Below are positions 1-56,207 of a DNA stretch of 59,204 bases, piece after piece. The stretch comes from an uncultured virus (IMG/VR IMGVR_UViG_3300042987_002221). Lineage: Duplodnaviria; Heunggongvirae; Uroviricota; Caudoviricetes. Each line of letters begins with the position of its first letter. Position 1 is the stretch's first letter. The notes beneath the pieces were generated by a model. That model searched no databases. It saw nothing but the letters and a program-made list of their open reading frames with translations, and was not told the DNA's origin. Position numbers and translations under genes: made by a program. The stretch spans positions 62,001 through 121,204 of the IMG/VR virus record IMGVR_UViG_3300042987_002221; one strand, written 5' to 3'.

Positions 1-2190
1 ATCAAATCATTATGTGAAGAATATAGCAAAATGGCAGGGTTTGTTCGTGCAGTTCGTGGAAATCAATTCAATGAATCAGCACAGAAGTTAGTAGAAGCAG
101 GATTGAACCATTATGTTTCATTAAGAGAAACATTAGGTAAGATGCGTGGTAATCGTGGATACAATAGTTATTTTGAAAGTTGGACTCCTACATTAATGGA
201 GACTGATGGTGATGAAACTTCCATCAATGAATTGTTTGTTCAAGAGACATTAGATCCAAGAATTGAAAGTGTAATGCCTATTCTTTCTAAATTGAGTAAA
301 AATTTAAGTGAAGTAAAAGAAGTTAAAGAACTAGAAGAATGGGCTAATGGTTTACTTGAAGCACCAGGTGCAGAAACATTAGCACATAACCAATCTACAG
401 CAAAGTCTAATTTAAAGTCATTTGATTTAGAAGAAGACAGTGTAAATGAAGGTTGGTTTGCTGACACATTAAAAAGTGTGGGGAAGGCTGTATTAGACAA
501 GCTGGCCCCAAATGATAAACAATTATTACTAAAACTACAGAGAGATATGGGAGTTCCTACAACCGCTCAACATGGTAAACCATCAATGGCAAGAATGATG
601 AGTGATGAAGAAGTTCAAAAATTAATTGCTGCGGCTAGAAAAGTCAATGCTGGCAGAAATTCTAGTTTATCTGAAGAAGAAGTTGAAGAAAGTGGACTGC
701 AGGCGTATTTAGGAAACAAGAAATACGGCAAAGACGGCATGGATTCATTACGCAAAGCAGGTCGTGAAGGTGCGAGCAAAGAAAAGATGGCAAAGATTCG
801 CGCCAAATATGATAAGTTAGATGAAGAAGGTTTGGGACCAGAACAAAAACGTGTTGGTCAACTTGGACCAACTGAAAAGGTTAAGAAAAATAGTGGTGCC
901 AGAGGTAAACTAGTTGGTGCCAATGAAAGTGTAGAGCAAGGTGTGGCGGAAGGCTCGACTAATAAAACACTGTTTGTTATTTACTATAAAACAGGTAAGG
1001 GATTTGACGCTGGTACTGGAGATGTAGGAATACTTGCATCCAATGAACAAAAAGCAAAAGAAAAATTTGCAAAAAAATATCCTCACTTTATTGTGACTAA
1101 AATAGTAGAAGGTATGAAATATGTTCTTGTTGATTACCGTGGAAATTATTATAAAGGCATGGATAAGTTTGGTAGAAATCTTTCTACTAGAAATCCAGAA
1201 GAAGCCGAAATATTTAATTTAGAGCGTGACGCTAAAGATATAGCATTATGGACTAGAAATAGATTTAAGGCAATACCTTGGTCAGGTCAGCGAGGTGTGG
1301 CGGAAGGCTTGCCTGGTAGTCTAAGTGCTAGTGATTATATGCCGGGAGCAACTTTACCACACACTAACTGGAATTGTATTAAGTGTAGTGGTCATAAGTT
1401 TATGTACAGTTTAGATGGAAAATTAACTAAAGATAATAAAAAAGGTGCAATAAGAGTTAAATGCCCTGATTGTGGCGGTTCTGGGTTAAAGAAACCTGAC
1501 CCCGGTCACGATTATTTTGGTCGAAAGAAAGAGGAAGGTGTGGCGGAAGGCTCTGAGCAAGACCTAGTATATATTTCAAAAGACCGTGCCGAGGCTTTTG
1601 AAGAATGGATGAACAGTGAAGGTCTTGAAACTAATGTTCCTAAAAATGATTATGGAACATATATTGTTTATAATTATTCTAACGAAGATCCTACTTCAAA
1701 ATTATATGCCAGTGAATGGAATGAAAGAAGAGAAGGTGTGGCGGAAGGCACCGATGATCCTAACCCCTCAGCCGGTCCAGGATCTATATCACATTCAACA
1801 CCGGTAAGACGTAATGGCAAAGATGTTGGTGAATTATTTCAAACTAAATCAGGTAGTTGGGGATTCTTTATCAATACGTCAGCCAAAACTAAAGAAGGCT
1901 TTGAGAGCAAAGAAAAAGCACTGGAAGCGATGAAACAACATTTGGGGCAAGGTATGGCGGAAGGCATGGAACAAGAATGGGAAGTAAGTTTTGAACATGG
2001 TCCACATCAATCAGACAGTGTTAAAGTAAAGGCATCTTCTAAAGAGGAAGCTATCTCTAAAGCAAAAGAACAGGCCAAGAAAACATTTAGGACTCAAAGC
2101 CTATCACTAAATTGGGCAAGACCTGTAAAAAAAGGTGTGGCGGAAGGGCAAGAAGACCTTGATGCACTCAAAAAATTAATGGGTAAATAA
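1..2190 (+). CDS. Putative head-internal/prohead-core polyprotein with six GVAEG-delimited boundaries (5' partial)
   Basis: Frame open from base 1; acidic/charged protein with many hydrophobic-x-E-(G/S/A) sites; five modules between repeats, one with CxxC...CxxCxGxG. Confidence 0.6.
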   Translation: MKSLCEEYSKMAGFVRAVRGNQFNESAQKLVEAGLNHYVSLRETLGKMRGNRGYNSYFESWTPTLMETDGDETSINELFVQETLDPRIESVMPILSKLSKNLSEVKEVKELEEWANGLLEAPGAETLAHNQSTAKSNLKSFDLEEDSVNEGWFADTLKSVGKAVLDKLAPNDKQLLLKLQRDMGVPTTAQHGKPSMARMMSDEEVQKLIAAARKVNAGRNSSLSEEEVEESGLQAYLGNKKYGKDGMDSLRKAGREGASKEKMAKIRAKYDKLDEEGLGPEQKRVGQLGPTEKVKKNSGARGKLVGANESVEQGVAEGSTNKTLFVIYYKTGKGFDAGTGDVGILASNEQKAKEKFAKKYPHFIVTKIVEGMKYVLVDYRGNYYKGMDKFGRNLSTRNPEEAEIFNLERDAKDIALWTRNRFKAIPWSGQRGVAEGLPGSLSASDYMPGATLPHTNWNCIKCSGHKFMYSLDGKLTKDNKKGAIRVKCPDCGGSGLKKPDPGHDYFGRKKEEGVAEGSEQDLVYISKDRAEAFEEWMNSEGLETNVPKNDYGTYIVYNYSNEDPTSKLYASEWNERREGVAEGTDDPNPSAGPGSISHSTPVRRNGKDVGELFQTKSGSWGFFINTSAKTKEGFESKEKALEAMKQHLGQGMAEGMEQEWEVSFEHGPHQSDSVKVKASSKEEAISKAKEQAKKTFRTQSLSLNWARPVKKGVAEGQEDLDALKKLMGK
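939..2148 (+). repeat. Six in-frame copies of AGGTGTGGCGGAAGG (G-V-A-E-G)
   Basis: GGT codon at 940, 1294, 1537, 1735, 1951 (GGTATGGCGGAAGG variant) and 2134; spacings 354, 243, 198, 216, 183 nt. Confidence 0.95.
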
Positions 2191-2199
2191 ACTCATAAA

Positions 2200-2223
2200 A
2201 AACCGCACAAAAATGTGCGGTTT
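2200..2223 (+). terminator. Intrinsic terminator-like hairpin
   Basis: AAACCGCACA-aaaa-TGTGCGGTTT just after the stop at 2190. Confidence 0.7.
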
Positions 2224-2352
2224 ACCATATCCATGATAAATACATTGATTTCTCGCTGTGAGTATGTAATACTTACGAGAAGTTAGTCACAGTGGCTTGT
2301 GACGACTATATTCAACAGAGACCATCTCATTTTTTTTAAGGAGTAAAACAAG

Positions 2353-3336
2353 ATGCCAAGCTTAGCCGAACTACGAGCAAGAATCGCTCAACAAGAAAAC
2401 AAATCACAACAAAATTCCAATCGTGAGTCAGATAATGCAATTTATCTACATTGGAATATCCCCGAAGGTACAACTGCCTCACTAAGATTCCTACAAGACG
2501 GAAACGAAAAGAATGAATTTTTCTGGGTAGAACGTGCGCTAATCAAACTTCCATTCAACGGAGTCAAGGGTCAACCCGAAATGAAGCGTGTTGAAGTTAC
2601 AGTTCCATGTATGGAGATGTACGGAGAATCATGCCCAATTCTAGCTGAAGTTCGTCCTTGGTACAAAGATGAATCACTTAAGGAAATGGCAAACAAGTAT
2701 TGGAAAAAGCGTAGTTATCTCTTTCAGGGATTTGTACATCAAAATCCTCTACAAGATGATAAGAGTCCTGCAAACACGATTCGTAAGTTTATCATCAGCC
2801 CTCAACTTATCACTATCATTAAGTCAGGTCTAGTAGATCCAGAAATTCTAGAACTGCCAACTCACTATGAACGTGGTCTTGATTTTCATATCAAGAAGAC
2901 TTCAAAGGGCGGCTATGCTGATTATGGTACTAGCAGTTGGGCAAGGCGTGAATCTGCTCTTACAGATGCAGAACGTCAGGCTATTGAAACACAAGGACTT
3001 TACAATCTAACCGATCTTCTTCCTAAGAAGCCAACTCAATCAGAACTTGCAATCATCAAGGAAATGTTTGATGCATCGGTAAACGGTGAACAATATGACC
3101 CAAATCGTTGGGGTAATTACTATCGTCCATTTGGAGTTAATAGCCCAAGTGCTTCTAATTCATCAACATCAAATGTTCCTCAGAACAAACAAGTAGCAGA
3201 TGAAGACGAAGACACTTCTGTACAGGAACCAGTTGTTTCTAAACAACCAGTGAAGGTTCCAAGTGCAACTGTTTCTAGTGATAAGGCCAGTGACATATTG
3301 GCCATGATCAAGGCAAGACAAACAAAAGTTGCTTAA
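2353..3336 (+). CDS. gp32: Single-stranded DNA-binding protein, T4 gp32-like
   Basis: LRFL, C-x6-CPI zinc site, YWKKRSY, GGYADY, acidic C-terminal tail; strong SD AAGGAG; upstream of uvsX. Confidence 0.85.
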   Translation: MPSLAELRARIAQQENKSQQNSNRESDNAIYLHWNIPEGTTASLRFLQDGNEKNEFFWVERALIKLPFNGVKGQPEMKRVEVTVPCMEMYGESCPILAEVRPWYKDESLKEMANKYWKKRSYLFQGFVHQNPLQDDKSPANTIRKFIISPQLITIIKSGLVDPEILELPTHYERGLDFHIKKTSKGGYADYGTSSWARRESALTDAERQAIETQGLYNLTDLLPKKPTQSELAIIKEMFDASVNGEQYDPNRWGNYYRPFGVNSPSASNSSTSNVPQNKQVADEDEDTSVQEPVVSKQPVKVPSATVSSDKASDILAMIKARQTKVA

Positions 3337-3341
3337 ATGAT

Positions 3342-3365
3342 TAAAGGGAGATTAATCTCCCTTTA
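3342..3365 (+). terminator. Hairpin/terminator after gp32
   Basis: TAAAGGGAGATTAATCTCCCTTTA palindrome. Confidence 0.6.
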
Positions 3366-3387
3366 CTTAATATTTAAGGAGTAAATT

Positions 3388-3615
3388 ATGACATTACCAA
3401 ATGAAAGGTTTCGTTCCTTAAAACAGGGACGAAAACTATTAGAAGAATTATGCGATCCAGGTAAAACACCTAGGGTCCCTAGTATTGTACGTGAAAGGGC
3501 TCGTGGTGCATTACGTCATTATCCAAGTGAACATGAACTTGAACGTATTGCAGATACCTGTCCAGAATATCTTGATAAACAAGTTTTAAACTTTTATCAT
3601 ACAGGAATTAAATGA
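3388..3615 (+). CDS. Small conserved phage protein (BPSL0761-like)
   Basis: MTLP.ER.R...L..L....TPRVP..VR..AR..LRHYP pattern; SD AAGGAG. Confidence 0.6.
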   Translation: MTLPNERFRSLKQGRKLLEELCDPGKTPRVPSIVRERARGALRHYPSEHELERIADTCPEYLDKQVLNFYHTGIK

Positions 3616-3626
3616 ATGGAGAATAA

Positions 3627-4685
3627 ATGACAAAGCCCTTTGACCTATCAAAATTTCGTAAATCAATAACTAAATCTATCGATGGCATTAGCCTTGGATT
3701 CAACGATCCAACCGATTGGATTTCAACTGGTAATCATGCATTGAATTATCTAATCTCAGGTGATTACAATAAGGGCATTCCTCTTGGCAAGGTTACTGTC
3801 TTTGCAGGTGAATCAGGATCAGGAAAAAGTTTCATCTGTTCTGGCAATCTAATTAGAAACGCACAAGAACAAGGAATCTATGTAATTCTTATTGACAGTG
3901 AAAACGCACTTGATGAACAGTGGCTACGCAATCTTGATGTTGATACATCAGAAAATAAATTGCTGAAGATTAATATGGCAATGATTGATGACGTGGCTAA
4001 ACTTATCAGTGAATTCGTCAAAGAATATAAGGTAATCCCAGAAGCCGAACGTCCAAAGGTATTGTTTGTGTTGGACAGTCTAGGTATGCTGTTGACACCT
4101 ACTGATGTAAATCAGTTTGAAAGTGGTGATCTGAAGGGTGATATGGGTAGAAAGCCTAAGGCACTAACTGCATTGGTTCGCAATTGCGTCAACATGTTCG
4201 GTGATCTAAATATTGGTTTGGTTGCTACTAATCACACATATGCAAGTCAAGACATGTTTGACCCTGATGATAAGATCAGCGGAGGTCAAGGTTTTATTTA
4301 CGCAAGTTCTATTGTGGTAGCAATGCGTAAGTTGAAGCTAAAGGAAGATGAAGAAGGCAATAAGATTACAGAAGTACGTGGTATTCGTAGTGCATGTAAG
4401 ATCATGAAAACACGATACGCAAAGCCATTTGAAAGTGTACAAATCAAAATTCCATATGAAACTGGTATGAATCCTCATAGCGGACTTGTTGATATGTTTG
4501 AAGGAAAAAGTATCCTGCAAAAGGATGGCAATAGTCTTAAGGCTGTGTTTCCAGATGGTACAAGTATCAAAAAGTTTCGCAAGGCATGGGAAAAGAACGA
4601 AGATGGTTGTCTAGACAAAGTAATGTTAGCATTTAAAAAATTGGATGCAAATGTAAATACTACATTTGAGGAGGCACCAGAATGA
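3627..4685 (+). CDS. uvsX: RecA-like recombinase UvsX
   Basis: ISTG, Walker A GESGSGKS, IDSENA, VLDSLG, NHTY, SGG motifs. Confidence 0.93.
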   Translation: MTKPFDLSKFRKSITKSIDGISLGFNDPTDWISTGNHALNYLISGDYNKGIPLGKVTVFAGESGSGKSFICSGNLIRNAQEQGIYVILIDSENALDEQWLRNLDVDTSENKLLKINMAMIDDVAKLISEFVKEYKVIPEAERPKVLFVLDSLGMLLTPTDVNQFESGDLKGDMGRKPKALTALVRNCVNMFGDLNIGLVATNHTYASQDMFDPDDKISGGQGFIYASSIVVAMRKLKLKEDEEGNKITEVRGIRSACKIMKTRYAKPFESVQIKIPYETGMNPHSGLVDMFEGKSILQKDGNSLKAVFPDGTSIKKFRKAWEKNEDGCLDKVMLAFKKLDANVNTTFEEAPE

Positions 4686-4927
4686 GTTTGATGATTGCTA
4701 ACGAACTTTGGGATTTAGTAAAGTCTCATCTTAACCAAAACGATACAAAAGAAGTAGCAGAAAATATGGTAAGTCTTTTTATTGATTATGGTTATGATGC
4801 CGATGATATCAAAGAATCTTTTAAGGACAAAGTAGTACTAACTGCATTGAAAGACTATTTGCAAGATGAAGATTTTAATGATATTGAAAATGATGAATCA
4901 GATGATGAAGAAGACGAAGAATGGTGA
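4682..4927 (+). CDS. Small acidic hypothetical protein
   Basis: ATGA overlap with uvsX stop; SD GAGGAGG. Confidence 0.7.
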   Translation: MSLMIANELWDLVKSHLNQNDTKEVAENMVSLFIDYGYDADDIKESFKDKVVLTALKDYLQDEDFNDIENDESDDEEDEEW

Positions 4928-4930
4928 TGC

Positions 4931-5386
4931 ATGAATTGGCATACGAAAGTTTCGGAAAATCTATCCGTTATCCCAGACTTTATATCGCATTATGAAAAAG
5001 AACTAGAACAAGCTAGAAAAGAGGTAGGTATATATGGCAAGATTGAAAAAAATATTGCCAATCTACCCGGTATCACTGAAGAACGTTTTAACCAGCTTCA
5101 AGAAATTGAAGCTGTTTTAAATTACCTCAATATTCAACTTAAAAAGATTCGCCGAAAACATTTTCAAAAATTCCTTGAGGCGTATAATCGTGAATTATCG
5201 AGCCGTGATGCAGAAAAATATGCGGATGGTGAAGATGAAGTTATCGATTTTGAAATCTTGATAAATGAAGTGGCACTAATACGTAATAAGTATTTGGGTT
5301 TACTTAAAGGATTAGAAAGCAAAAATTTTATGTTAGGGCATATCACAAGACTACGAACTGCTGGTCTTGAAGATATAACTATATGA
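4931..5386 (+). CDS. uvsY: Recombination mediator UvsY-like
   Basis: Helical 151-aa protein with KY.DGE and C-terminal R.AG; position after uvsX. Confidence 0.75.
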   Translation: MNWHTKVSENLSVIPDFISHYEKELEQARKEVGIYGKIEKNIANLPGITEERFNQLQEIEAVLNYLNIQLKKIRRKHFQKFLEAYNRELSSRDAEKYADGEDEVIDFEILINEVALIRNKYLGLLKGLESKNFMLGHITRLRTAGLEDITI

Positions 5387-5395
5387 GGCAATGTA

Positions 5396-6058
5396 ATGAA
5401 TCTAACAACAGTAGATATTTTTAATGAAGATTATCAACCGAAACGTCAGCCGGTTACTTTCTTTGAAAGTAAAGTAGATACATTGGTTTTATCTTGTGCT
5501 GTGTATCGCCATAACAATACATTTGGTATCATGGATTCTATCGTAGACTCTGCGTTGACCCATGCCGATTATGTTTTAGCATCAGCAATTGAACAGTTTT
5601 ACAAAAATAAATTAGTCATTGCTAAACTTAAGGGCAAACATCTAAGTAAATTCAAAGAAGATTTGCTGACATTTTTAACCTCGGATAGAAAAAAGGTATT
5701 AGTTGATGACATTCCAATGATCACAAGTTTGCCTAAACTGTACAATGAAGATTTGGAAGTACTTAAGGTAACCGAGTCTTTGAACAAAACGTGTGAAGAT
5801 AAAACAAATCTTAAGTTTAAAGGTACTTTTACCTATGTCGGTAAAGTTGATAAAAAACACAAAAATAGATTTTCTTGTGAGTATTGGTTTAAAGATGCAA
5901 ATAACAATGCCTATATGACTGAGATTGGTAAGAAAAATCCTTTGTTATCAATTTGGGAAAAATCTATTTCTACGTCAGAAATAACAGTAGAAGGCAAATT
6001 TAAATATCACGATAGCGATTTTCAGTTCCATAAATTTTCTCATTTTAAGGTCCTATAA
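5396..6058 (+). CDS. Hypothetical protein
   Basis: 220-aa ORF continuing the operon. Confidence 0.75.
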   Translation: MNLTTVDIFNEDYQPKRQPVTFFESKVDTLVLSCAVYRHNNTFGIMDSIVDSALTHADYVLASAIEQFYKNKLVIAKLKGKHLSKFKEDLLTFLTSDRKKVLVDDIPMITSLPKLYNEDLEVLKVTESLNKTCEDKTNLKFKGTFTYVGKVDKKHKNRFSCEYWFKDANNNAYMTEIGKKNPLLSIWEKSISTSEITVEGKFKYHDSDFQFHKFSHFKVL

Positions 6059-9555: not shown

Positions 9556-9738
9556 ATGAATAAAGAACTCGGTTTTGCTATCTTTTATTGTATCGCTACT
9601 ATAGCGACAGCAATTTGCATCCATGGATTTGGTAGGGCAGGCGCCTTCCATTCGGTTGTAGAAGATTGCCAAAAGTTAGGTGCATTCTATATAGGTGGTA
9701 CAGTCTATGAATGTAAGGAAAAGAAAATTGACAAATAA
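9556..9738 (+). CDS. Small membrane-anchored protein
   Basis: GGAG SD; N-terminal hydrophobic segment; C..G.F....VY.C. Confidence 0.6.
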   Translation: MNKELGFAIFYCIATIATAICIHGFGRAGAFHSVVEDCQKLGAFYIGGTVYECKEKKIDK

Positions 9739-9756
9739 TATGGTATTTGATATACT
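9728..9756 (+). promoter_or_regulatory. Early sigma70-type promoter
   Basis: TTGACA-17 nt-TATACT. Confidence 0.85.
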
Positions 9757-9786
9757 GTATTCATGTTGAACGCAACGGAGAGCAAG

Positions 9787-9954
9787 ATGTTTGATATCTA
9801 TGTCTATAACGCGGACAATGGTGAACTGGTCGGTGTTGATCCTGCTTATGCCGCAGACTCCTATAAGGCCGCTGCACAACGTTGGATCGACCGTGGTTGC
9901 ACTGTAAAGGTCGTTGACACTTATGATGGTGTCGTGGTCTACACGCTGGGGTGA
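9787..9954 (+). CDS. Small hypothetical early protein
   Basis: ACGGAG SD before ATG 9787. Confidence 0.65.
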   Translation: MFDIYVYNADNGELVGVDPAYAADSYKAAAQRWIDRGCTVKVVDTYDGVVVYTLG

Positions 9955-10077
9955 CAATTTTTTTGTCTTGAGAATACTCTACCAATTGAATTGGTATGTG
10001 ATGATTTATTTTGTCGTCAAATTCAAGTTGTTCTGGTTTAAGATAAATATCTGACTATCCTCAGAAGGAAATAGTCT

Positions 10078-10434
10078 ATGCGAATTAACGAAATCAACAA
10101 TACCCCGAAGATTTCTCCTAAAAAAGAACGGGCGCTCAAGAAAAGTATTACTGCAATTACTAAAGAGTTTCCCAGGACTTTCAAATCCAAACAATATAGA
10201 ATTACCACAAACTGGATCAACGAATTCAAAGCACATTTGGAAATTCATATTGACAGTCCTGCATTACAAAGAGACAAAAAGTCCTATAATTTTTTGGTTA
10301 GCGATGTAGAAAGTATTTTGAGACAAAACGAAAATATCTCCAAATACACTTATTTGGGTGGCGCTGATCCCATGGGTCCTGAGCCCTTGTTTCACTATGC
10401 TGTTTGGGAGTTGGTATTCCCGTACAATCTGTAA
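10078..10434 (+). CDS. Late-promoter gene with MRINE N-terminus (possible capsid-targeted protein)
   Basis: GATAAATA at 10042; AT-rich codon usage unlike neighbours. Confidence 0.65.
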   Translation: MRINEINNTPKISPKKERALKKSITAITKEFPRTFKSKQYRITTNWINEFKAHLEIHIDSPALQRDKKSYNFLVSDVESILRQNENISKYTYLGGADPMGPEPLFHYAVWELVFPYNL

Positions 10435-10443
10435 TATTTCTTC

Positions 10444-10500
10444 TTGACAATAAATCCCAAAACTCATATAATGTCTTTCTAGACAGTTGAGACACGGAGC
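10444..10500 (+). promoter_or_regulatory. Repeated early promoter/RBS cassette
   Basis: TTGACAATAAATCCCAAAACTCATATAATGTCTTTCTAGACAGTTGAGA, identical to the 10705 copy over ~49 nt. Confidence 0.9.
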
Positions 10501-10507
10501 AAACGAA

Positions 10508-10708
10508 ATGATCAACGAAGCAAAAGTCCTGAAAGTTGTCAAGTCTGTGACCGATACCAACGCTTACTTTTACAACGGTACCTTGTTTTTGGAAACTGTT
10601 GACAGCGACATTGCTGTTCGTGTTTTCAATGCAATTTGGGAAAACATCACGGCCGCGGTTGCGTTTGGTAAGGTCGGTAACGAGACCTCTTACGATTTTC
10701 TCGGTTGA
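10508..10708 (+). CDS. Small hypothetical early protein
   Basis: Flanked by two identical promoter repeats; stop inside next TTGACA. Confidence 0.75.
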   Translation: MINEAKVLKVVKSVTDTNAYFYNGTLFLETVDSDIAVRVFNAIWENITAAVAFGKVGNETSYDFLG

Positions 10709-10763
10709 CAATAAATCCCAAAACTCATATAATGTCTTTCTAGACAGTTGAGAAACACGGAGC
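10705..10763 (+). promoter_or_regulatory. Repeated early promoter/RBS cassette
   Basis: Direct repeat of 10444 element. Confidence 0.9.
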
Positions 10764-10769
10764 AAATTC

Positions 10770-11258
10770 ATGAAGATCGTCATCAGCACTCAAATCCGCG
10801 AAAACTACGGCGCCCACGATTGGGATGGCGAGGGTGCTTGCCCGCAGTACTGGAAGTGCAAGGGTGGCGACACCTACGTTATCCCGAACCTGACGGTTGC
10901 TCAGGTCCTCAAGGTCAAGGATCAGGGCATCCCGACCCTGAAGGCTCTGATCGAATCCCGCAATGAGGGTTTCGAGGAGTACGTTGTTGATTGGTCTATC
11001 CTCGATGATGACGCCAAGGTCTGTGATGAGTGGGAAACCCCGTTCGAACTGTTCTGGGAACAGGGTCGCTGGATCGCTCGGCGCACCGTCGAGAACGGTG
11101 AGTACGGCTGCATGCGCCGTGAGGTTGCTAGCAAGTCCGAGCAGTATGACATGCTGATGGCTGGCGGTCGTGAGAACTACCGTGTGGTCTATACGATGCG
11201 TAACGGTGATTCGGTCACCGGTGAGCAGGTCTCGGAATATCTTTCGAAGGCTGCTTGA
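10770..11258 (+). CDS. Conserved hypothetical phage protein
   Basis: TQ.RENYGAHDWDG.G.CPQYWK.KGG motif; follows promoter cassette. Confidence 0.8.
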   Translation: MKIVISTQIRENYGAHDWDGEGACPQYWKCKGGDTYVIPNLTVAQVLKVKDQGIPTLKALIESRNEGFEEYVVDWSILDDDAKVCDEWETPFELFWEQGRWIARRTVENGEYGCMRREVASKSEQYDMLMAGGRENYRVVYTMRNGDSVTGEQVSEYLSKAA

Positions 11259-11271
11259 TTCAGGAGTAAAA

Positions 11272-11547
11272 ATGAATATTCGCGAGTGGTTTAACCGACA
11301 TTTTGACCGTAAGGAGCACACGGTGGGTTATATTGTTCGGGACGAAAACGGCATCATGCTGATGGAGATCAGCAATGACGCGGCGCAGTATATTATCCGA
11401 GGTTCAAAAGGTCGTTTTCGTCCATACAAGGTAGACAACGCCGCTGAGACAGTGGTCTTTGAGATTCTTGAAGACGCAGCGTGGTCCATTCCGGTGGGTA
11501 AAATTTTTCTATGGCGTGGGACCCTGTTGATCCCAAAGGTTGATTGA
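11272..11547 (+). CDS. Hypothetical protein
   Basis: SD AGGAG; stop inside TTGACA at 11544. Confidence 0.7.
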   Translation: MNIREWFNRHFDRKEHTVGYIVRDENGIMLMEISNDAAQYIIRGSKGRFRPYKVDNAAETVVFEILEDAAWSIPVGKIFLWRGTLLIPKVD

Positions 11548-11572
11548 CAGGGTCTTTGATCGGTGCTATAGT
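11544..11572 (+). promoter_or_regulatory. Early sigma70-type promoter
   Basis: TTGACA-17 nt-TATAGT. Confidence 0.8.
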
Positions 11573-11600
11573 ACACACACTGAAACACAAGGAGTACCTG

Positions 11601-11921
11601 ATGACCTATCGGATGTTCATTGATGACGAGCGATTCCCACCCAACGATGGTAAGGAATGGGTCATTGTTCGTAGTTCTGCTGAAGCCATGAAGATGGTGC
11701 TTGATCGTGGTGTGCCCAACTTTATCTCATATGATCATGATCTGGGAGGCGAAGACACCAGCATGGTCTTCATCTACTGTATGATTAATCTCTATCTGGA
11801 TGGTGATATCAAGGTGTTCCCTACTGAGTTCGTGGTTCATAGCCAGAACCCTGTCGGTTCCCGCAACATCAACAAACTGCTGCTCAGTTTTATTGAAGCT
11901 GTTGATCCTGTGTCGGCTTGA
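11601..11921 (+). CDS. Cyclic-phosphate-processing receiver-like domain protein
   Basis: FIDDER, W.IVRS..EA, ISYDHDLG, HSQNPVG motifs. Confidence 0.75.
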   Translation: MTYRMFIDDERFPPNDGKEWVIVRSSAEAMKMVLDRGVPNFISYDHDLGGEDTSMVFIYCMINLYLDGDIKVFPTEFVVHSQNPVGSRNINKLLLSFIEAVDPVSA

Positions 11922-11973
11922 CAATAAATCCCAAATCGCATATAATGTCTTTCTAGACAGTTAGATAACGGAG
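11918..11973 (+). promoter_or_regulatory. Repeated early promoter/RBS cassette
   Basis: TTGACAATAAATCCCAAA...TATAATGTCTTTCTAGACAGTT...ACGGAGC. Confidence 0.9.
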
Positions 11974-11979
11974 CAAGAA

Positions 11980-12213
11980 ATGCAAGTTGGTGACATCGTT
12001 AAGAGCCTGGATTTCAACGGTATTGACAACTGCTACATGGTTGGCAAGGTCGTCGGTATTCATCATGACGGCACGTTCCGTGCGAAGTTCATCAAGCGTG
12101 TTTGGGAAGGCGTTGAAGATCGCAAGTTCAAGACTGATTTCTTCACGGCTCCGCAGCAAGGTCAACATATGTTTGATCGCGCTCAATCTCCTCGTGTCAT
12201 TGTTGTTGGTTAA
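11980..12213 (+). CDS. Small hypothetical protein (SH3-like start)
   Basis: MQVGDIVKSLDF; follows promoter cassette. Confidence 0.75.
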   Translation: MQVGDIVKSLDFNGIDNCYMVGKVVGIHHDGTFRAKFIKRVWEGVEDRKFKTDFFTAPQQGQHMFDRAQSPRVIVVG

Positions 12214-12236
12214 TCTTTAACTCAAAGGAAATAGAA

Positions 12237-12521
12237 ATGCATTCTCATCAACATGGTGTTTGCCCCGTGTGCAACGGCACTGGCCGTGTCCCGGCTGGTA
12301 ACTATCGTCGTACTGCTGGCTACGACAAGGAAACTGATACTATCGCTTGCCGTAATTGCGGTGGTCAGACCATGAGCATGAAGGCAACGGGCAAAGTTCG
12401 TCTGCGTCCTGATGGTACGCCGTGCGAACACAAGTATGTGGCTCATGTTGCAGGTCGCTGCTACGTGGTCTACACCTGTGAACACTGTGGCGATAGCTAC
12501 GGTATCGATTCTAGTGATTAA
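12237..12521 (+). CDS. Small zinc-finger protein
   Basis: CPVCNGTG, CRNCGG, CEH, CEHCG motifs; SD AAGGA. Confidence 0.75.
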   Translation: MHSHQHGVCPVCNGTGRVPAGNYRRTAGYDKETDTIACRNCGGQTMSMKATGKVRLRPDGTPCEHKYVAHVAGRCYVVYTCEHCGDSYGIDSSD

Positions 12522-12567
12522 TCAGAAATTTGTCAGTGTGTTTTTTCAATCTAAAGGAGTAAGTAAA

Positions 12568-12831
12568 ATGTCTAAGGTTTATTTCATGCACGTTCGTAAC
12601 GTTGACACCTCTGATCGTATCAGCAACTTTGGCGGTGCCACTATCGCATATCGTGAAGTGCCCGGCGGAGTAGAATTCGCTGAATCATGGTGCAGTGATC
12701 GTGATAATTTCAATAAGGCCTACGGTCGTGCTAAGGCGCAGGGTCGGCTGAATAGTTCTAACTATCGTCGTACTTTCGCTGGGTCATTCGTTGAATTCCG
12801 TCAGGCGATTTCTGAAAATCGAGTGTTGTAA
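12568..12831 (+). CDS. Conserved small phage protein
   Basis: SD AAGGAG; GGATIAY...CS..DNFNK..GR..A.GR pattern. Confidence 0.7.
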   Translation: MSKVYFMHVRNVDTSDRISNFGGATIAYREVPGGVEFAESWCSDRDNFNKAYGRAKAQGRLNSSNYRRTFAGSFVEFRQAISENRVL

Positions 12832-12834
12832 CCC

Positions 12835-13011
12835 ATGTTGAAAGGTATTCTTTCATTCTTGATTCTGTTCGGACTATTTTTCTTTAGTATCACGGCATTT
12901 CGTCTTACTACTGAAAAAGAAAAATGGCAGTTGACAAAATTGATTGCCTTTAGTACACTATGTGCTTCGCTGACAATGGTAGCTCTAGTGTCTATTGTGC
13001 TAATCTTTTAA
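12835..13011 (+). CDS. 58-aa two-helix membrane protein (not in ORF track)
   Basis: MLKGILSFLILFGLFFFSITAF...LCASLTMVALVSIVLIF; upstream of SPFH gene. Confidence 0.65.
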   Translation: MLKGILSFLILFGLFFFSITAFRLTTEKEKWQLTKLIAFSTLCASLTMVALVSIVLIF

Positions 13012-13152: not shown

Positions 13153-13950
13153 ATGAAGCGTATTTTTAGTGTTGGTATTCTTGCCGCTGCTGTTCTTGCT
13201 ACGGGTTGCACTCGTATCGAAACCGGTGAAGTAGGCGTTCGTGTGGGCTTTGACAAGCAAGTCAAGCCCGGTGAACTTCAACCTGGTAGTTTTAATCAAA
13301 CCCTTGTCGGTGATGTATTGACGTTCCCGGTAAAGGATGTCAATGTGGCAATTGAGAACATGACTCCTGTTGCTAAGGACAACAGTACCATGAAGGATTT
13401 TGATGTTGTGGTAGTTTATAACATCAATCCAAATCAGGTAAGTGAAATTTATTCTACTAAGAACAAGGCGTTTCACGCTATCACCAAGGATGATGTTTAT
13501 CTGATGTACAATTATGTAGTGCAAAATGCACGAAATGCAGTTTACAAGGCTGCACGAAAGTACGATGCGCTAGATATGGGTGACAATCGTAGTGAAATGG
13601 AGAACTTCATCAAGGAAGAAATTGTTCGTAATTTGACCGAAGAAAAGCTTGATGGTAGTATTGCTATCAGTCAGGTTCTGATTCGTAACGTTGTTCCTGC
13701 TGATTCGGTTGTAGCAAGTGCTAATGATCTGGTTCGTGCTAAGAATGAACTTAAGCAAAAGGAAGTTGAAGTCAAGACCGCCGAAGCTGAGGCTCGCCGT
13801 ATGGCAGCACTGGCTAATAACAGTCAGAGTTCTATTGCTTTCATGCAAGCCCAGGCCACTTTGAATATTAGTGAAGCAGTAAAAGCGGGAAAAGTTCAGA
13901 CCATTATCATCCCAAGTAATCTGACTATGCTAGGGAATATTTCTAAGTAA
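13153..13950 (+). CDS. SPFH/Band 7/prohibitin family lipoprotein
   Basis: Lipobox LATGC, I..GEVGVRV.F, coiled-coil AEAEA tail. Confidence 0.85.
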
Positions 13951-14655
13951 TTTTCTGCGTCTAGCTTCTTTGCTAGCCGCAGTAACATAAGTCCATTCGG
14001 ACATAGGTTTTCCTGTAGACTTACATTCATCTAGAATTTCTACAGGCAATCTATGTCCTTTTCCGTCTTTATCTATTAGAGTTATTATATTTTTACCAAG
14101 AAAATTATGATTTCCTTGCTCAACACGAATTTGATTATTTTTTCTAGCTGTTTCTTTATTTAAAAAATTGTGTGTTCCATTTTCAACTCGTTGTTGATTT
14201 ATTTTTTTAGAAAGTTCAGATAATTCATCTTTATTCATAGTTTGAAAATTTAATTTTTTCTGTTCTGCCATTTTTTTAGCTACATTCATGTTATCTCTTG
14301 TTAAGAATGGATGAGAGCCATTCTCTGTTTTTTTGAGATTATTTGCAGTTGCGGCAATTGATAGTTTTTTTATTGTTTTCTCTTCAAAAATTCTACCAGA
14401 CGTTCCCTCACCACCGTCTGTTTTATTTCGTAATATCCCTGTATTTAAATCTTTTCTGCCGTACCATTTAATATATCTACGTTCAAGGGCTATTGCACCT
14501 ATTTCAGTTAGGTTTTTTTCTAGAAAAACTATTTTGGTTAAATCTTTTGGTATTTTAACTGAGTGTTTAGCAAGATAACGTTTTTCTTTACCTTTGCCAA
14601 TATAATACGGAGTCCCATCTTTTCTTAAATAGGCGTAAACATAATAAATATTCAT
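13930..14655 (-). CDS. Free-standing GIY-YIG homing endonuclease
   Basis: [17 protein letters not shown]...ERR.I..YGRKD...G.LRN.TDGGEG; C-terminal NG.H(N/P)FL repeats. Confidence 0.85.
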
Positions 14656-14861: not shown

Positions 14862-16292
14862 ATGCACCTTATAGATATATTTGAAGCCAGAAAAAACCCT
14901 GATCTTAATCCTAAAGTATCAGTAAATCAGTACATTGATCAGGCAATGGCCTCAGCAGGTAAATTGCCAGGTTCAGATATTACTAATCTATTCATTAGTT
15001 TTACTCAATTACCTAAGTTAGGTATTAATCCTAGATCACATTACAATACACCATTAGGAATCTATTCATATCCAGCAGATTATGTGATAGAATCTACTCA
15101 TGGAAGATATTCTATGGCTACTTTACCTTTTGCTGGTAAACAACCCTATGCTAATATTTTTCAAGGTCGTGGTAATATTGTTCATTTGAATACAATGAGT
15201 TTGCAAGATGAATATCGCTACAATGATAAACTTCGTGCTTATGCAAAACGATTGCCAGCTGTAGATTTTACTAAGCATTATGCTCCTCCCGGCAAAGATT
15301 GGCCTGACATAGTAGACAACACAATCAATGCCGCAGTTGACTATGCAAGAGAGCGTATGTTACCCGGTGGCAGATTATGGTACACAACTTGGAAATTAAG
15401 TGGCTATATAGAGACATATCTAAAAAAACCTGCATCACTAGCATGGAATGAATTATTCAGACAGGCATTAGGTATTGACGGTTGTGTTGATACGGGTAAA
15501 GGAATTATACATCCTAGTGAACCCACACAGGCTGTATTTTTTAGTTTGGGTGCGACTAAACTCATTTCTACTGTTCAAAACAAATATAGTCCTGAGCAAA
15601 TGTCAGCCGGCGAAGACCGTGGTGTAAAGATGAAGGAGCAATTAGAAAGATTGCGAGATGCACTAGAAGAGAAAGATTATGGAACAATAGTGTGGCAAAT
15701 ACTTCAACGTAGTGTCATTGATGGTGAAAATTTTGATAGTAAGTATTTACTGAAGTATATACCCAAAGATGTTAGATATTTGCTGTATAAAGATTATAAA
15801 TCAGGGCTAGCACTTGATTTGGGTGAAAAATTAAAAGCAGATGAATTTTTATATGCTGTATCTGAAGACCCCAAAATTTTATACTACGGGGCACTTCAAC
15901 AACATGAAAAACTTATATTTGATAATCTAGATGCAATAATGAAGATATTACAGGACTTCAAGAGTAATGTCGGTAAAGGTAAGTTAGAAACAGCATTAAA
16001 AAGAATCTATATAAGTGATATTAGAGATATAGCTAAAATGCTATTCAGAAAATTTCCAAAAGACGATCCTGAATTTTTAAAGGGATTGATTGATTTATAT
16101 CCAGGTGTATACGAATCTTTCTATAATAATTGGGGTCTTGAAGGTGGAAGAAAATACATTTATCAATATGCTTTGAAGAAAATGAAGGAAGATCCAACGA
16201 ATTTTGATCAAGATGACATTGATAACTTACTAGGTATTATTGAATCTTTAAATTATCAAGAATATTTGGATAAGGAACGCAAGGCCAAATAA
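14862..16292 (+). CDS. Late protein, paralog 1 (possible ADP-ribosyltransferase-like domain)
   Basis: GATAAATA at 14849; N-terminal ~250 aa clearly homologous to the next ORF. Confidence 0.7.
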   Translation: MHLIDIFEARKNPDLNPKVSVNQYIDQAMASAGKLPGSDITNLFISFTQLPKLGINPRSHYNTPLGIYSYPADYVIESTHGRYSMATLPFAGKQPYANIFQGRGNIVHLNTMSLQDEYRYNDKLRAYAKRLPAVDFTKHYAPPGKDWPDIVDNTINAAVDYARERMLPGGRLWYTTWKLSGYIETYLKKPASLAWNELFRQALGIDGCVDTGKGIIHPSEPTQAVFFSLGATKLISTVQNKYSPEQMSAGEDRGVKMKEQLERLRDALEEKDYGTIVWQILQRSVIDGENFDSKYLLKYIPKDVRYLLYKDYKSGLALDLGEKLKADEFLYAVSEDPKILYYGALQQHEKLIFDNLDAIMKILQDFKSNVGKGKLETALKRIYISDIRDIAKMLFRKFPKDDPEFLKGLIDLYPGVYESFYNNWGLEGGRKYIYQYALKKMKEDPTNFDQDDIDNLLGIIESLNYQEYLDKERKAK

Positions 16293-16293
16293 T

Positions 16294-17628
16294 ATGAAAA
16301 CAATAGAAATAATTGAAGCCCGTAAGTATCCTGAACTTAATCCTAAAGTTTCAATAAATCAATACATACGTCAAGCATATGATGCCGCCGCACAATTGCC
16401 TAATACTAATTTGAAAAATCTTTTCGTAAGTTTTGTAGCAGTGCCCAAATTAGGAATAAATCCACGATCAAAGTTTAATACACCATTAGGAATTTATGCC
16501 TATCCAGCAGGTTATGTTATGGTAAGGGCCGGCGATGATAAAGTAATGCGATATTCGTTACCTTATGCCGGCGAACAACCATATGCTGCTGTTTTCAGTG
16601 CTGGTGGTAATATTATTGATATTAGACGAATGACTACTAATGATGAAGAACTTTATTATGATAAACTAAGAGAGGTAGCAAAACGATTACCAAAAATAAA
16701 TTCTGATATATACATACCGAACGGAATAGCAAAAGATTGGCTTAGTATACTTGAGCTATGTATAAAATTAGCACCAGAAAGAGCCAAATTTAAAAATCTT
16801 CCAGGTGGAAGATTATGGTATGTAACCTATAGATTTAGTAATTATTATGGTCCAAATTATGGACAAAATCCTATAGTTTCCTGGAACAAATTGTTTAGAT
16901 CAATAGGTATAGATGGTGTAGTAGATGAAGGTGCTGGCATAATACATGAAGCAGAACCAGTACAGGCTGTATTTTTTAGTTTGGCACCATTACGTGTATT
17001 AGGTATTGTAGATAACAAATACAGTCCAGAAACAATTAAAACGCAACAACAAAGAGGGGTAGATACTCAACAAATATTAGCCTCACTTAAACGTGATATA
17101 GCAATTGCGTTAAAAAATGATGATGTTGAAATATTAAAACCATATTTGATGCGTGACACATTAAACCTTAATGGTTGGGATTGGGAAATACTTTTTAGGT
17201 ATATTCCACAAAAATTGCGTTACAAGTTATATGCTGATCCTAGTAAACGTTATAATAAAATGTTTTGGGCTAGTGGGAAAAATTTAGACCCAGATGAGTT
17301 TGAGGCTGCAATGAAAAATAATTTATCAACACTAATACATATAAAGACTAGGGAACCCAAGAATATAGAGTTTATTAGACAAAATAAAGATAAGGTTCTT
17401 GATGCACTAAAATCAGCAACTACAGCAGAGTTAAAGGATGTGCCAGGATATTTTTCTGATTCTATGCTTAGTATATTACCTTGGGATAATCCAGAATATC
17501 TGAAATATTTGGTTTATCTTGATAAGAATTTACCTAAGGAAGATGACTTCATAAATCTTGTTAAGAATTCACCAAACAAAAAGAAAATTTTTGCGGCATA
17601 TAAAAGCTTATCTGATTGGCTGAATTAA
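16294..17628 (+). CDS. Late protein, paralog 2 (possible ADP-ribosyltransferase-like domain)
   Basis: Shares EARK.P.LNPKVS, PKLGINPRS, NTPLGIY.YPA, GIDG.VD, QAVFFSL with upstream ORF. Confidence 0.7.
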   Translation: MKTIEIIEARKYPELNPKVSINQYIRQAYDAAAQLPNTNLKNLFVSFVAVPKLGINPRSKFNTPLGIYAYPAGYVMVRAGDDKVMRYSLPYAGEQPYAAVFSAGGNIIDIRRMTTNDEELYYDKLREVAKRLPKINSDIYIPNGIAKDWLSILELCIKLAPERAKFKNLPGGRLWYVTYRFSNYYGPNYGQNPIVSWNKLFRSIGIDGVVDEGAGIIHEAEPVQAVFFSLAPLRVLGIVDNKYSPETIKTQQQRGVDTQQILASLKRDIAIALKNDDVEILKPYLMRDTLNLNGWDWEILFRYIPQKLRYKLYADPSKRYNKMFWASGKNLDPDEFEAAMKNNLSTLIHIKTREPKNIEFIRQNKDKVLDALKSATTAELKDVPGYFSDSMLSILPWDNPEYLKYLVYLDKNLPKEDDFINLVKNSPNKKKIFAAYKSLSDWLN

Positions 17629-36352: not shown

Positions 36353-36373
36353 TATTTAATAAAGGAAAAACAA

Positions 36374-53801: not shown

Positions 53802-56207
53802 ATGGATTTTAAATCATTATTAGACCAATTAAACCAATTGTCTGAGGCTAAAGAAGAAACAAAGACAGGTGTAAAACACAAAGCCAAACCAGGACGTTAT
53901 GGCGGCTATGATCCAGAAACTAACCCTGACAAAGATGACGATGAAAAGAAAGCTGAACCAGCCGCAAAACGTGGTCGTGGTCGTCCTAAGAAAGGTGCTG
54001 ATAGCGAAACTGGTGAGGTAAAGAAGTGGGATACTGATACACTACAGAGTTGGATTGTTGGTAATAAACCAAAGAAATTACCTGGTAAAGCCAGTGTAAA
54101 ACATACTATGAAAGAAGAAAGTGTAGCAGAAGGTACTGATAAAAAATCTTCATTGAAAGATTGGATGAAAGTTGTTTCAGAAAATGTACCTCCAGGGATG
54201 AAACCTCTAGCTATGATGAATCCACAAAACAAACAAGTTGGAGCAGGTGTTTTAACTAGCAAAAATCCAGCAGTTCAAAAAATGTTAGGTGGCATAGATC
54301 CAAAAGATGTACAAATTGTACAAACTACTGCACAAACTTCAACTCAACCAGCTGCAGGTGCAACAGGTCAAGCACCAACTGGAACACAACCAATGAAGGA
54401 AAAAGAAGGTGATTATTCTGCTAAAAAAGCAAGAGCAGGAAAAGATATCGGTAAGCCAGGTAAGCAATTCAGTAAGATCGCTACAAGTGCAGGCAAACGT
54501 TATGGTTCAAAGGCAGCAGGCGAACGTGTTGCAGGTGCGGTTCTTAAAAATCTAAGAAAAGCCAATGAAGGTGTGGCGGAAGGCTATTCACTAAAGAAAA
54601 CTAATGTTGAAAAAACATTTCATCCAGGTGATCCAGAGGATTTCGGCAGTGTTGATATGACACGAAAAGATACAGATTACGAAATTATTAATAACAAAAC
54701 AGGTCAAGTAGTAGGTACTGCAAGTTGGACTACTAATGATTATTTTGGACCAGGGGCAATAAAAATTACCATGAAGAATGGTGCTACACGTTATCTCGAT
54801 ATTAAGAATAGTGACAAGGGTAATCCACAAAGTGCCTTCAATCGTTTTGTAAAAGATCCAAGTACTTCTAAAAAATATAAAGAGCAAGGTGTGGCGGAAG
54901 CAGACATTCCATCTGATCAAATGGACATGGGTGCAGGTTTAGGTGCCGGTAGAAGCGATAAAACGTTTGAAGGCAAAAAAGCTAAGCCTGATTTCTTAGA
55001 TATTGATAAAGATAAAAACAAAAAAGAATCTATGAAAAAAGCAGCAAGTGACAAGAAAAAGAAAAAAGTTACTGAAAGTTCACATAGACATTCTGCTGCT
55101 AGACTAATGGGTAAATCACACGCACTAGCAAAAGAAGGATACAATTGCCGTTATGAAGATATGGATGAAGCAAGAGAATATCATGAAGGCTTCAAAGAAG
55201 GTTTAGATGAATGCTATGGTCAGGGTGTATACGAAACTGCACCAGCAATGCCACCAGCAACAGTTTCTGGAATGGCAAGTGCAGCAATGCCTACACTAGA
55301 AGACGAAATGGACATGTATGAAATGGATAGAACAGAATACATGAGACATAAGGCAAGCACCACACCAGGTGATACATTCAAGGCATTTGGACAAACATTC
55401 AAAGACACAGAAGTATTAGAAACTGATAGTTTCTTTGAAAGTTTAGATAATCAACTACAGGCACTTTTAGAAAGTGAACAAGTTGATGAAGGTATGACTG
55501 TTTCTATAAGCAAAGGTCAACAAGGAATGCCTGACTCAGTAAGCGTTACTGCTCAAGATGCGGAAGCTGAACAACTTTTAGGCTTGATTAAAACTGCTGG
55601 TTTAGGCTTGTTCGGCGATCAACAGTCTAGTGATTATGGTGCAAGTGATCAAGGTAAAGAATCACATGGGGATATTGAAGTGGTAGGTGATCATGATGGA
55701 ATGATGTCAATCATGAAAAAACTAACAGGTCAATCTGACAGTCAAGATTACGCTGATGAAGAAGGTGAAGAGGAAGAAACTTGTGATTCATGCGGTGAAT
55801 ATGAAAGTGATTGTGGATGTGATCACGAGGAACAAGTTGATGAAGTTGAAAATGACGAACAACGTGAATTTCAAGTAAGTGAAGACAATCCTCCTGATAC
55901 AGATGCAGCCGAAACTACTGCTGATGAAGAAGCCGAAGCAGCCGAAGATCAAGCATTAGCAACTCAAAATGTAGAGGAAGAGTTGAATGAATGGGCAAAT
56001 GATGCAGGGCAAAGTCTTGAAGAGTTCAAAGAAGAAACATTCACAACTGATGATGAGTTCATGATCCAAACAATTGCAGGTGGTTTGAATAAACCTAAAT
56101 CAACAGGACAAACTACTATCCCTGTAATTGCAGGACAAAACGATAGAATGGGATATTCTACTAATGAATCTATTGGTGATTGGAAAAAATTAGCAGGACT
56201 CAGATAA
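53802..56207 (+). CDS. Large acidic putative prohead-core/internal protein carrying one GVAE-delimited module
   Basis: Very E/D-rich, many hydrophobic-x-E sites, AT-hook-like RGRGRPKK, ends KKLAGLR. Confidence 0.7.
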   Translation: MDFKSLLDQLNQLSEAKEETKTGVKHKAKPGRYGGYDPETNPDKDDDEKKAEPAAKRGRGRPKKGADSETGEVKKWDTDTLQSWIVGNKPKKLPGKASVKHTMKEESVAEGTDKKSSLKDWMKVVSENVPPGMKPLAMMNPQNKQVGAGVLTSKNPAVQKMLGGIDPKDVQIVQTTAQTSTQPAAGATGQAPTGTQPMKEKEGDYSAKKARAGKDIGKPGKQFSKIATSAGKRYGSKAAGERVAGAVLKNLRKANEGVAEGYSLKKTNVEKTFHPGDPEDFGSVDMTRKDTDYEIINNKTGQVVGTASWTTNDYFGPGAIKITMKNGATRYLDIKNSDKGNPQSAFNRFVKDPSTSKKYKEQGVAEADIPSDQMDMGAGLGAGRSDKTFEGKKAKPDFLDIDKDKNKKESMKKAASDKKKKKVTESSHRHSAARLMGKSHALAKEGYNCRYEDMDEAREYHEGFKEGLDECYGQGVYETAPAMPPATVSGMASAAMPTLEDEMDMYEMDRTEYMRHKASTTPGDTFKAFGQTFKDTEVLETDSFFESLDNQLQALLESEQVDEGMTVSISKGQQGMPDSVSVTAQDAEAEQLLGLIKTAGLGLFGDQQSSDYGASDQGKESHGDIEVVGDHDGMMSIMKKLTGQSDSQDYADEEGEEEETCDSCGEYESDCGCDHEEQVDEVENDEQREFQVSEDNPPDTDAAETTADEEAEAAEDQALATQNVEEELNEWANDAGQSLEEFKEETFTTDDEFMIQTIAGGLNKPKSTGQTTIPVIAGQNDRMGYSTNESIGDWKKLAGLR
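54569..54900 (+). repeat. Two further copies of AGGTGTGGCGGAAG flanking a 318-nt in-frame module
   Basis: GGT codons at 54570 and 54888. Confidence 0.95.

Follow-up and report, generated by a model that had tools for sequence, protein, structure and literature searches.

The DNA analysed here (the window; 59,204 nucleotides, positions 62,001 to 121,204) is the right half of a linear viral contig of 121,204 bases and 36% GC (IMG/VR record IMGVR_UViG_3300042987_002221, an uncultured freshwater giant phage of the Caudoviricetes), and it opens inside a gene whose C-terminal part is divided by a short in-frame repeat encoding GVAEG. The question raised by this locus is why so short a linker is kept in one DNA spelling, with rare codons, between protein modules that are largely unrelated. 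A preliminary description, made from the letters alone, had answered that the repeat is both a recombination or integration site and a protease site, by which modules are gained, lost or shuffled like integron cassettes within one open reading frame (ORF), packaged, and freed as small effectors. The copies of the linker and their spelling are described first, followed by the exchange of modules between near-identical relatives, which has its breakpoints at the linker.

The linker and its DNA spelling

Two genes, both on the plus strand, carry the linker. Carrier gene 1 (959 aa, contig 61311-64190) starts 27 bases downstream of the large terminase gene and 690 bases before the window, and positions 1..2190 of the window hold its C-terminal 729 of 959 codons. 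Its final 416 residues are split by six in-frame copies of AGGTGTGGCGGAAGG (GVAEG), of which five are exact (linker 1, Q-GVAEG, 939..953; linker 2, 1293..1307; linker 3, 1536..1550; linker 4, 1734..1748; linker 6, 2133..2147) and one has a single mismatch (linker 5, 1950..1964, the GMAEG variant, GGT ATG GCG GAA GGC). A scan with the 15-mer placed the GGT codons at 940, 1294, 1537, 1735, 1951 and 2134, with spacings of 118, 81, 66, 72 and 61 codons, exactly as first read. Carrier gene 2 (801 aa, 53802..56207) contains two further linkers that the preliminary description lacked, an exact copy (E-GVAEG, 54569..54583) and a one-mismatch copy (Q-GVAEA, 54887..54901), as well as a degenerate SVAEG (54119..54133) that does use GTA and GCA, as had been reported (AGT GTA GCA GAA GGT), in a spelling kept identically in the relative L335. 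Each carrier is probably, if with modest confidence, made up of a conserved body, then an array of small unrelated modules, then a short conserved C-terminal tail.

The genome-wide count of the repeat by frame and strand that had been proposed as a check gave eight occurrences of a relaxed DNA motif in the 121,204-base contig, all eight on the plus strand, in frame and solely in the two carrier ORFs; at up to three mismatches there were 11 linker matches against 0.56 expected (100 shuffles, largest 3). The codons GGT-GTG-GCG-GAA had been called fixed in spite of their rarity, and this holds: in the genome, GTG accounts for 10.0% of the Val codons and GCG for 7.4% of the Ala codons, and the probability of GGT GTG GCG GAA given GVAE is 0.0029 per site, or 2e-18 over seven independent sites.

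The exact 15-mer was found in the viral collection at 127 loci at least, in more than 100 other viral contigs. Among the matches listed, the GVAEG frame is the one used at 153 of 166 distinct sites, where it stays open for 150 bases to either side, 36 loci have more than one copy with a spacing of at least 90 bases, and the GC content of the loci is 31-49%, bar a handful of high-GC, short-ORF chance matches. A control 15-mer with the commonest codons GTA and GCA (AGGTGTAGCAGAAGG) gave at least 119 loci, with 56 of 111 listed sites in the GVAEG frame and no spaced copies among the loci listed; both counts are lower bounds, and the samples are comparable in their make-up and not in their totals. 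Since the exact-match sample is biased by its drawing, a second sample was drawn by carrier-body homology alone (80 of 333 relatives kept), and in these orthologs the spelling GGTGTGGCGGAA was found at 24 of 29 distinct GVAE sites, in keeping with the earlier suggestion that conservation acts on the DNA and not only on the peptide. Native junctions before the conserved tail of orthologs (VKEG, VNEG, MSEG, MNEG, INEG, LSEG, VTEG, and AVAEG spelled GCT GTA GCA GAA GGT) have the form hydrophobic-x-E-G with freely varying residues and codons, so the function of the peptide is independent of its spelling. The frozen spelling accompanies the cassette joint.

Over 221 distinct sites, the core of the joint is (C/G/A)AA GGT GTG GCG GAA GG(C), a direct, non-palindromic 18-mer and not an inverted repeat. 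The codon before the joint ends in A at 97% of these sites (CAA 140, GAA 42, AAA 21), GGC (140) outnumbers GGT (31) after the Glu codon although GGT is the commoner codon, and conservation drops to background within about 3 bases beyond the 18-19 base core. The 18-base joint is present in no cultured phage in GenBank, and a 24-base, 92% match to it in a faecal 'Bacteriophage sp.' looks like chance.

Such constraint at silent sites could instead reflect a role in cis at the level of RNA or translation: ribosomes would be slowed between modules, so that these fold during translation, either by the rare pair GTG-GCG or by AGGTG and GGAAGG, which resemble Shine-Dalgarno sequences. Whatever their GC class, carriers seldom use GTG and GCG (GCG 6-10% of Ala), and the third-position A before the joint and the preference for GGC would both suit such a role, but it leaves the breakpoints at the joint (see below) unexplained, native junctions in the same genes work with free codons, no start codon stands at a fixed distance after the linker, and a pause would require rare codons and not one exact 18-mer. 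A role of this kind is considered improbable.

Exchange of modules at the joint

For carrier gene 1, the relative L129 is 97.4% identical up to window 835, 95.6% identical over 822-956 and 98.8% identical over 2132-5397. Its DNA homology ends at 956, at linker 1, and resumes at 2132, at linker 6, the left and right crossover points, respectively. Between these two linkers, 1,175 bases and five modules stand in this phage, compared with 734 bases and two unrelated modules in L129, and both proteins end GVAEG-QEDLDALKKLMGK. L132 has one different module at this site, and the L154 ortholog reads ...GANENFIGMAPQ-AVAEG-QEELDAMLRLLGK with no module; the coherent end that had been predicted for the gene on removal of all modules thus exists in nature. 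Across 58 distinct complete orthologs of carrier 1 (397-974 aa), linkers number none in 37, one in 10, two in 9 and three in 2.

The same holds for carrier gene 2, in which L335 is 96.4-96.7% identical to this phage and collinear with it up to 54574 and from 54883, with the linkers at 54569 and 54887 as the left and right crossover points. The site is empty in L336 and L337 (...TNEG-DIPSD... or ...VNEA-ERPSD...), and it holds one module, B1, in this phage, two others in L335 and three, including B1, in L338. Modules are swapped between near-identical relatives with breakpoints at the linker, and the gain, loss and replacement of modules at the repeat that the preliminary description had envisaged is seen at both sites.

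The L335 crossover lies inside the joint, where identity runs through AGGTGT, as homology predicts, and on the compared sequences the data suit homologous or microhomology exchange better than site-specific integration. An integron-like system, in which the joint is an att site for a recombinase and cassettes pass through circular intermediates, would account for one exact core common to phages of 31-49% GC and for the sharp drop of information content at the edges of that core. Besides the position of the crossovers, it is contradicted by the core, which has no inverted-repeat structure, and by the proteins, since no integrase was found among the 47 scanned against PHROGs. Such a system is highly improbable, and the part of the earlier proposal that made the repeat an integration site like that of integron cassettes does not stand in its strict sense.

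Modules and the shared pool

The five modules of carrier 1 span 56-113 aa and net charges from +8 to -8. Module 1 (955..1293, 113 aa, net charge +8) consists of two units with a degenerate K-I-V-E-G junction at 1102-1113. Module 2 (1309..1536, 76 aa) is of the CxxC...CxxCxGxG zinc-ribbon type, with matches below curated cut-offs to Anti-TRAP (2e-4) and DnaJ_CXXCXGXG (0.019), and is 45% identical to a segment of L051. Module 3 (1552..1734, 61 aa) is acidic (net charge -8), module 4 (1750..1950, 67 aa) shares about 36% identity with modules of L119, L127 and L053 that have linkers on their flanks, and module 5 (1966..2133, 56 aa) is predicted to fold as strand-strand-helix-strand (pLDDT 77-88), with weak matches to phrog_2919 and DUF4288 below cut-off. 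Module B1 of carrier 2 (54585..54887, 101 aa) is shared with L338, is absent from L335, L336 and L337, and has a relative of 75% identity in L108, in an unrelated context between other modules.

All-against-all blastp at E<1e-5 gave zero matches among the modules of the window, which agrees with their first reading as largely unrelated. Scans of the modules of both carriers with Pfam and PHROGs found no domain above cut-off, and ESM Atlas, queried with module 1 and modules 3-5, gave no usable lead. AlphaFold2 prediction of the array without an alignment (mean pLDDT 40.6) was confident for module 5 alone, and in the model the linkers lie in coil between secondary-structure units and the C-terminal tail is helical.

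Modules recur in other carrier genes beside other neighbours, as had been expected. From 145 pooled carriers, 134 internal modules (median 71 aa) were obtained and grouped in 115 families; 16 families are found at more than one locus, and 13 of them have at least one pair of non-homologous neighbours, a number that may be inflated by the many pooled loci with just 300 bases of flank. Module 1 was searched against 1.84 billion representative proteins and gave two real relatives, both inside longer proteins. A relative of its second half (72% identity) lies in P0002 with GVAEG on both flanks, and the same protein additionally holds a relative of the second module of L129 (51% identity, E 9e-32); P0003 (2,368 aa, 16 short stretches) was rejected, its match to module 1 being false and caused by repeats. 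Pfam domains were absent at E<=1e-5 from 51 of 66 carriers scanned, and the domains in the others are DUF6321 (7), GP88 (5), GNAT with cytidine deaminase, GH19 with ParB_N, and LysM. Two of these linker-bearing carriers, from other phages, are L035:506-4690 (GNAT and cytidine deaminase) and L038:2391-4919 (GH19 lysozyme-like and ParB_N).

Part of window 600-2500 was present in 20 public runs, 11 of which hold at least half of its words (2 of the 11 being possible sources of this DNA); in RNA runs this share is about 0.05. Four runs, each from a different study, were compared with the window as contigs, and modules were found in them at 95-100% identity. For runs X5, X6 and X10, 18 of 23 piece ends inside 900-2200 fall within 15 bases of a linker (zones amounting to about a fifth of the stretch) and one further piece end falls at the K-I-V-E-G junction, counts that are indicative and were made among the 32 of 286 pieces listed. 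Loose contigs match up to 953, 1549 or 1553 and then run into 208-255 letters of other sequence, open in the linker frame as judged by eye. Joints in contig layouts (e.g. 960 to 2128) were rejected as deletion variants, having just 20-28 letters on one side, the linker itself. The array is no assembly chimera at junctions 1, 3, 5 and 6, since contigs of run X3, which comes from another sample, span these four joints with exactly the sequence of the window.

Candidate processing and head location

The large terminase shares about 50% identity with its counterpart in PA5oct, a jumbo phage of Pseudomonas, and 42-46% with the terminases of further jumbo phages, Rak2-like ones among them. The body of carrier 1 (aa 86-330) shares about 27% identity with PA5oct gp278. 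That protein is annotated as structural and as detected in virions by electrospray tandem mass spectrometry (ESI-MS/MS), and the positions of the two genes are syntenic, gp278 lying between the terminase and the gp32-like and UvsX genes. Carrier gene 2 is located after homologues of the PA5oct head-closure gene, gp283 and gp282. A model of the carrier body built from a 39-sequence alignment had a pLDDT of 66.8, and its matches in BFVD are uncharacterized phage proteins, one neighbour being named large polyvalent protein-associated domain protein. By tblastn, the window part of carrier 1 had no match among GenBank phages.

The tail of carrier 1 (QEDLDALKKLMGK, 2149..2187, plus strand) is conserved in orthologs after hydrophobic-x-E-G. 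Carrier 1 ends ...DLDALKKLMGK, carrier 2 ...GDWKKLAGLR, and other orthologs ...IRKLSGL or ...ARIIEMARFKR; the scaffolds of three relatives end ...(L/F/I)KRLAGL, and among the 134 ORFs of the contig the two carriers are the only ones that end like these scaffolds. From this resemblance the tail is a candidate capsid-targeting propeptide, which would be released by a cut at the last linker. Complex prediction for the capsid protein of a relative with the tail of its own carrier scored 0.01, which is evidence neither way.

The prohead protease of T4, gp21, cuts after L/I-X-E (PMC9026906), and those of phiKZ and SPN3US cut after S/A-X-E or A-X-E (PMC5694885, PMC9026906); V-A-E-G would fit these published rules loosely. 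Five large related contigs form one lineage with this phage (TerL 58-80% identical), and a Peptidase_S77 gene is present in three of them (G002, G004, G005), preceded by the gene for an acidic protein and followed by the scaffold and Gp23 capsid genes. Canonical linkers occur in two of the three, G002 and G004. In the Gp23 capsid proteins of all three, L-(K/S/A)-E immediately precedes the conserved core and is presumably the maturation site, by analogy with the cut position in T4 gp23.

On the explanation held to be the best as a whole, and somewhat favoured, both genes encode virion-associated carrier polyproteins in which every junction is the same joint of about 18 bases. Cassettes, drawn from a pool common to many freshwater phages, are exchanged in frame between co-infecting relatives at the joint, a step that is observed, with the identical spelling supplying the homology. 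The peptide V-A-E|G would then, somewhat more probably than not, be cut after Glu by a T4-type (Peptidase_S77) prohead protease, releasing the array inside the head as separate proteins of 5-13 kDa and removing the 13-residue tail like a capsid-targeting propeptide. The pieces might finally be carried in the capsid and delivered to the host along with the DNA, as T4 internal proteins are, a step that is quite possible but not favoured, and swapping of cassettes would quickly re-arm the phage. Cleavage, packaging and injection are plausible.

Alternatively, the linker may be no more than a recombination joint and flexible spacer, with the polyprotein left uncut as one multidomain protein. This alternative accommodates three points: what is observed is exchange and not cleavage, the model places the linkers in coil between units of secondary structure, and two of the five large relatives have no detectable S77 protease. 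It sits less well with the conserved peptide, which ends x-E-G; native tail junctions keep hydrophobic-x-E-G (with V, M, I or L at P3, the third residue before the cut) while all else varies, a sign that selection acts on a site with Glu and that the linker is more than a spacer; and the modules are unrelated, charged from +8 to -8, with no common function requiring a covalent link. An uncut spacer is held to be rather unlikely.

The linker could also be cut by another enzyme, such as an embedded zincin-type peptidase, ClpP or a host protease. Polyvalent proteins are thought to be processed by embedded metallopeptidase (MPTase) domains (PMC5512222), the BFVD neighbour named above is labelled as polyvalent protein-associated, and an HExxH-type motif occurs in 3 of 145 pooled carriers. 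ClpP is encoded by G001 (L343) and G003 (L344), with strong matches to the ClpP family (E 2e-81 and 9e-77). HExxH occurs in neither carrier of this phage and is missing from the other 142 pooled carriers, however, and cutting after Glu at hydrophobic-x-E is a hallmark of the prohead proteases of T4, phiKZ and SPN3US (PMC9026906, PMC5694885). A protease other than the prohead protease has a slim chance.

Several points weigh against exchange at the joint coupled to head processing. The two limits of the exact-match sample given above, its lower-bound counts and its bias, bear on the comparison with the control, and the rarity of GCG in carriers of every GC class leaves room for a rare-codon function. 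Metagenome contigs can be chimeric at repeats, and junctions 2 and 4 are without independent bridging. The P3 residue of the linker is Val, not the Leu or Ile of the gp21 rule. The body of carrier 1 has no sequence match in the Protein Data Bank (PDB) and no fold match there at E<=0.001, and the PA5oct label 'virion protein' does not specify the head. No prohead protease or major capsid gene was found in the contig, which is 35% complete by CheckV, and neither an S77 protease nor a Gp23/HK97 capsid gene was detected in G001 (99% complete) or G003; since a tailed phage must have a capsid gene, these two linear records probably miss the head module, or theirs is too diverged.

Comparison with known systems

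In polymorphic toxins, a short conserved junction (VENN in CdiA, DPxGL in Rhs) marks the swap of a variable module, and in Rhs it is also the site of self-cleavage. One C-terminal domain is swapped there together with an immunity gene, whereas the carriers hold several in-frame sub-gene modules and no immunity gene. Integrons hold arrays of promoterless cassettes that are whole ORFs, with an integrase and structured attC sites; neither an integrase nor structured attC sites flanking complete ORFs were found here, among 47 proteins compared with PHROGs and modules that are smaller than genes. Repoila et al. are said to have described in 1994 that close relatives among T-even phages carry variable small basic internal proteins sharing leaders like the capsid targeting sequence (CTS), and reportedly proposed that the shared leader DNA aids shuffling. 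Those hyperplastic loci are reportedly separate genes and not in-frame arrays, and are not known to have an identical 18-mer throughout the lineage.

In function, the carriers would resemble the T4 internal proteins IPI, IPII, IPIII and Alt, small poorly conserved proteins that are loaded into the prohead by a short removable peptide, freed by a protease cutting after hydrophobic-x-Glu and injected with the DNA (PMC9026906); for the carriers, such cleavage is conjectural. The CTS may let T4-like phages take various proteins into the capsid, and Alt is processed at its C-terminus as well (PMC9026906). The T4 proteins are encoded by separate genes, each with an N-terminal CTS of 10 residues, whereas in the carriers many modules follow a large body in one ORF, the candidate targeting element stands at the C-terminus and it is the DNA of the junction that is fixed. 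In phiKZ, 201phi2-1 and SPN3US, many internal head proteins are likewise cleaved behind the Glu of a three-residue motif, which one protein often has several times (PMC5694885, PMC9026906); the available parts of those papers describe the removal of propeptides from single proteins, and neither repeated arrays of cassettes nor junctions locked in their DNA spelling are described there.

Polyvalent proteins (Iyer et al. 2017, PMC5512222) resemble the carriers in placing many unrelated domains in one virion-delivered polypeptide, and have been likened to viral polyproteins (PMC5512222). Their 2-15 unrelated domains and late or structural context have a counterpart in the body plus 5-6 modules of the carriers, with terminase and neck genes as neighbours, and some pooled carriers hold ParB_N, GH19, GNAT or deaminase domains. 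Of the embedded zincin-like MPTase, known LPD or enzymatic domains of polyvalent proteins, none was found in the carriers of this phage (no HExxH, no Pfam or PHROG match above cut-off), and polyvalent proteins differ in that their processing is assigned to an embedded metallopeptidase, with no common junction or exchange at a fixed DNA joint described in the parts available and the word 'linker' absent from the text (PMC5512222). A full-text literature search for the GVAEG peptide returned no phage paper, and no repeated DNA-fixed junction is described in the available parts of the published phage head-processing, polyprotein and cassette literature. What sets the carriers apart from these systems is the joining of several sub-gene cassettes in one frame by a sequence frozen at silent sites across many phages.

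Other features of the contig

A terminator-like hairpin with a short T run, read from the sequence, stands 3' of carrier gene 1 (2203..2223, plus strand). The T4 late-promoter consensus octamer matches the contig five times on the plus and twice on the minus strand, with no match before either carrier. No tRNA was found by the tRNA scan. The Rfam freshwater-2 RNA motif was detected at window 36299-36376 on the plus strand (68.8 bits against a gathering score of 49.9), and it ends at the start of a 413-aa ORF (36374-37612) without a PHROG match. Window 9600-12900 holds just short ORFs on both strands, with GTG or TTG starts, and since no tRNA and no Rfam family was found in it by the scans, it may be non-coding or hold very small genes.

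Two minus-strand ORFs (13933-14655 and 26016-26669) have a common N-terminal motif of putative GIY-YIG homing-endonuclease type. Tandem paralogues of 476 and 444 aa (14862-16289 and 16294-17625, plus strand) have near-identical N-termini and no PHROG family. The tail sheath (46243-50010, plus strand) has 1,255 aa, of which PHROG sheath profiles cover residues 700-1250 only, leaving an N-terminal part of about 700 aa unexplained. An ORF of at least 971 aa (56291-59203, plus strand), open at the end of the contig, contains SGFSG-type Gly-Ser-Phe triplet-like repeats with five intervening copies of a conserved block, each of about 60 aa (...VTLAGSV.DYTYLPNGTPAGTLYI.LNSGGGYNAGDGAVSNGD.TW...), and is probably a fibre.

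Implications

A wider reading is put forward tentatively: the carriers would belong to a community-wide, integrase-free market of in-frame cassettes traded at one frozen joint that doubles as a V-A-E|G head-protease site. Unrelated freshwater phages (31-49% GC, different carrier genes) would trade sub-gene effector modules by homology, and one short element would be selected at two levels, for exchange as DNA and for processing as protein, in a system that is integron-like inside an ORF. If true, this would explain how giant phages renew their injected proteins while the flanking genes diverge by 1-3%, and it would be a case of selection on silent sites for exchangeability, which has rarely been demonstrated. 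The order body-joint-cassette-joint-tail would amount to a natural design rule for loading chosen proteins into capsids, and the roughly 115 module families, nearly all of them without a known domain, would be a catalogue of candidate host-takeover and anti-defence proteins.

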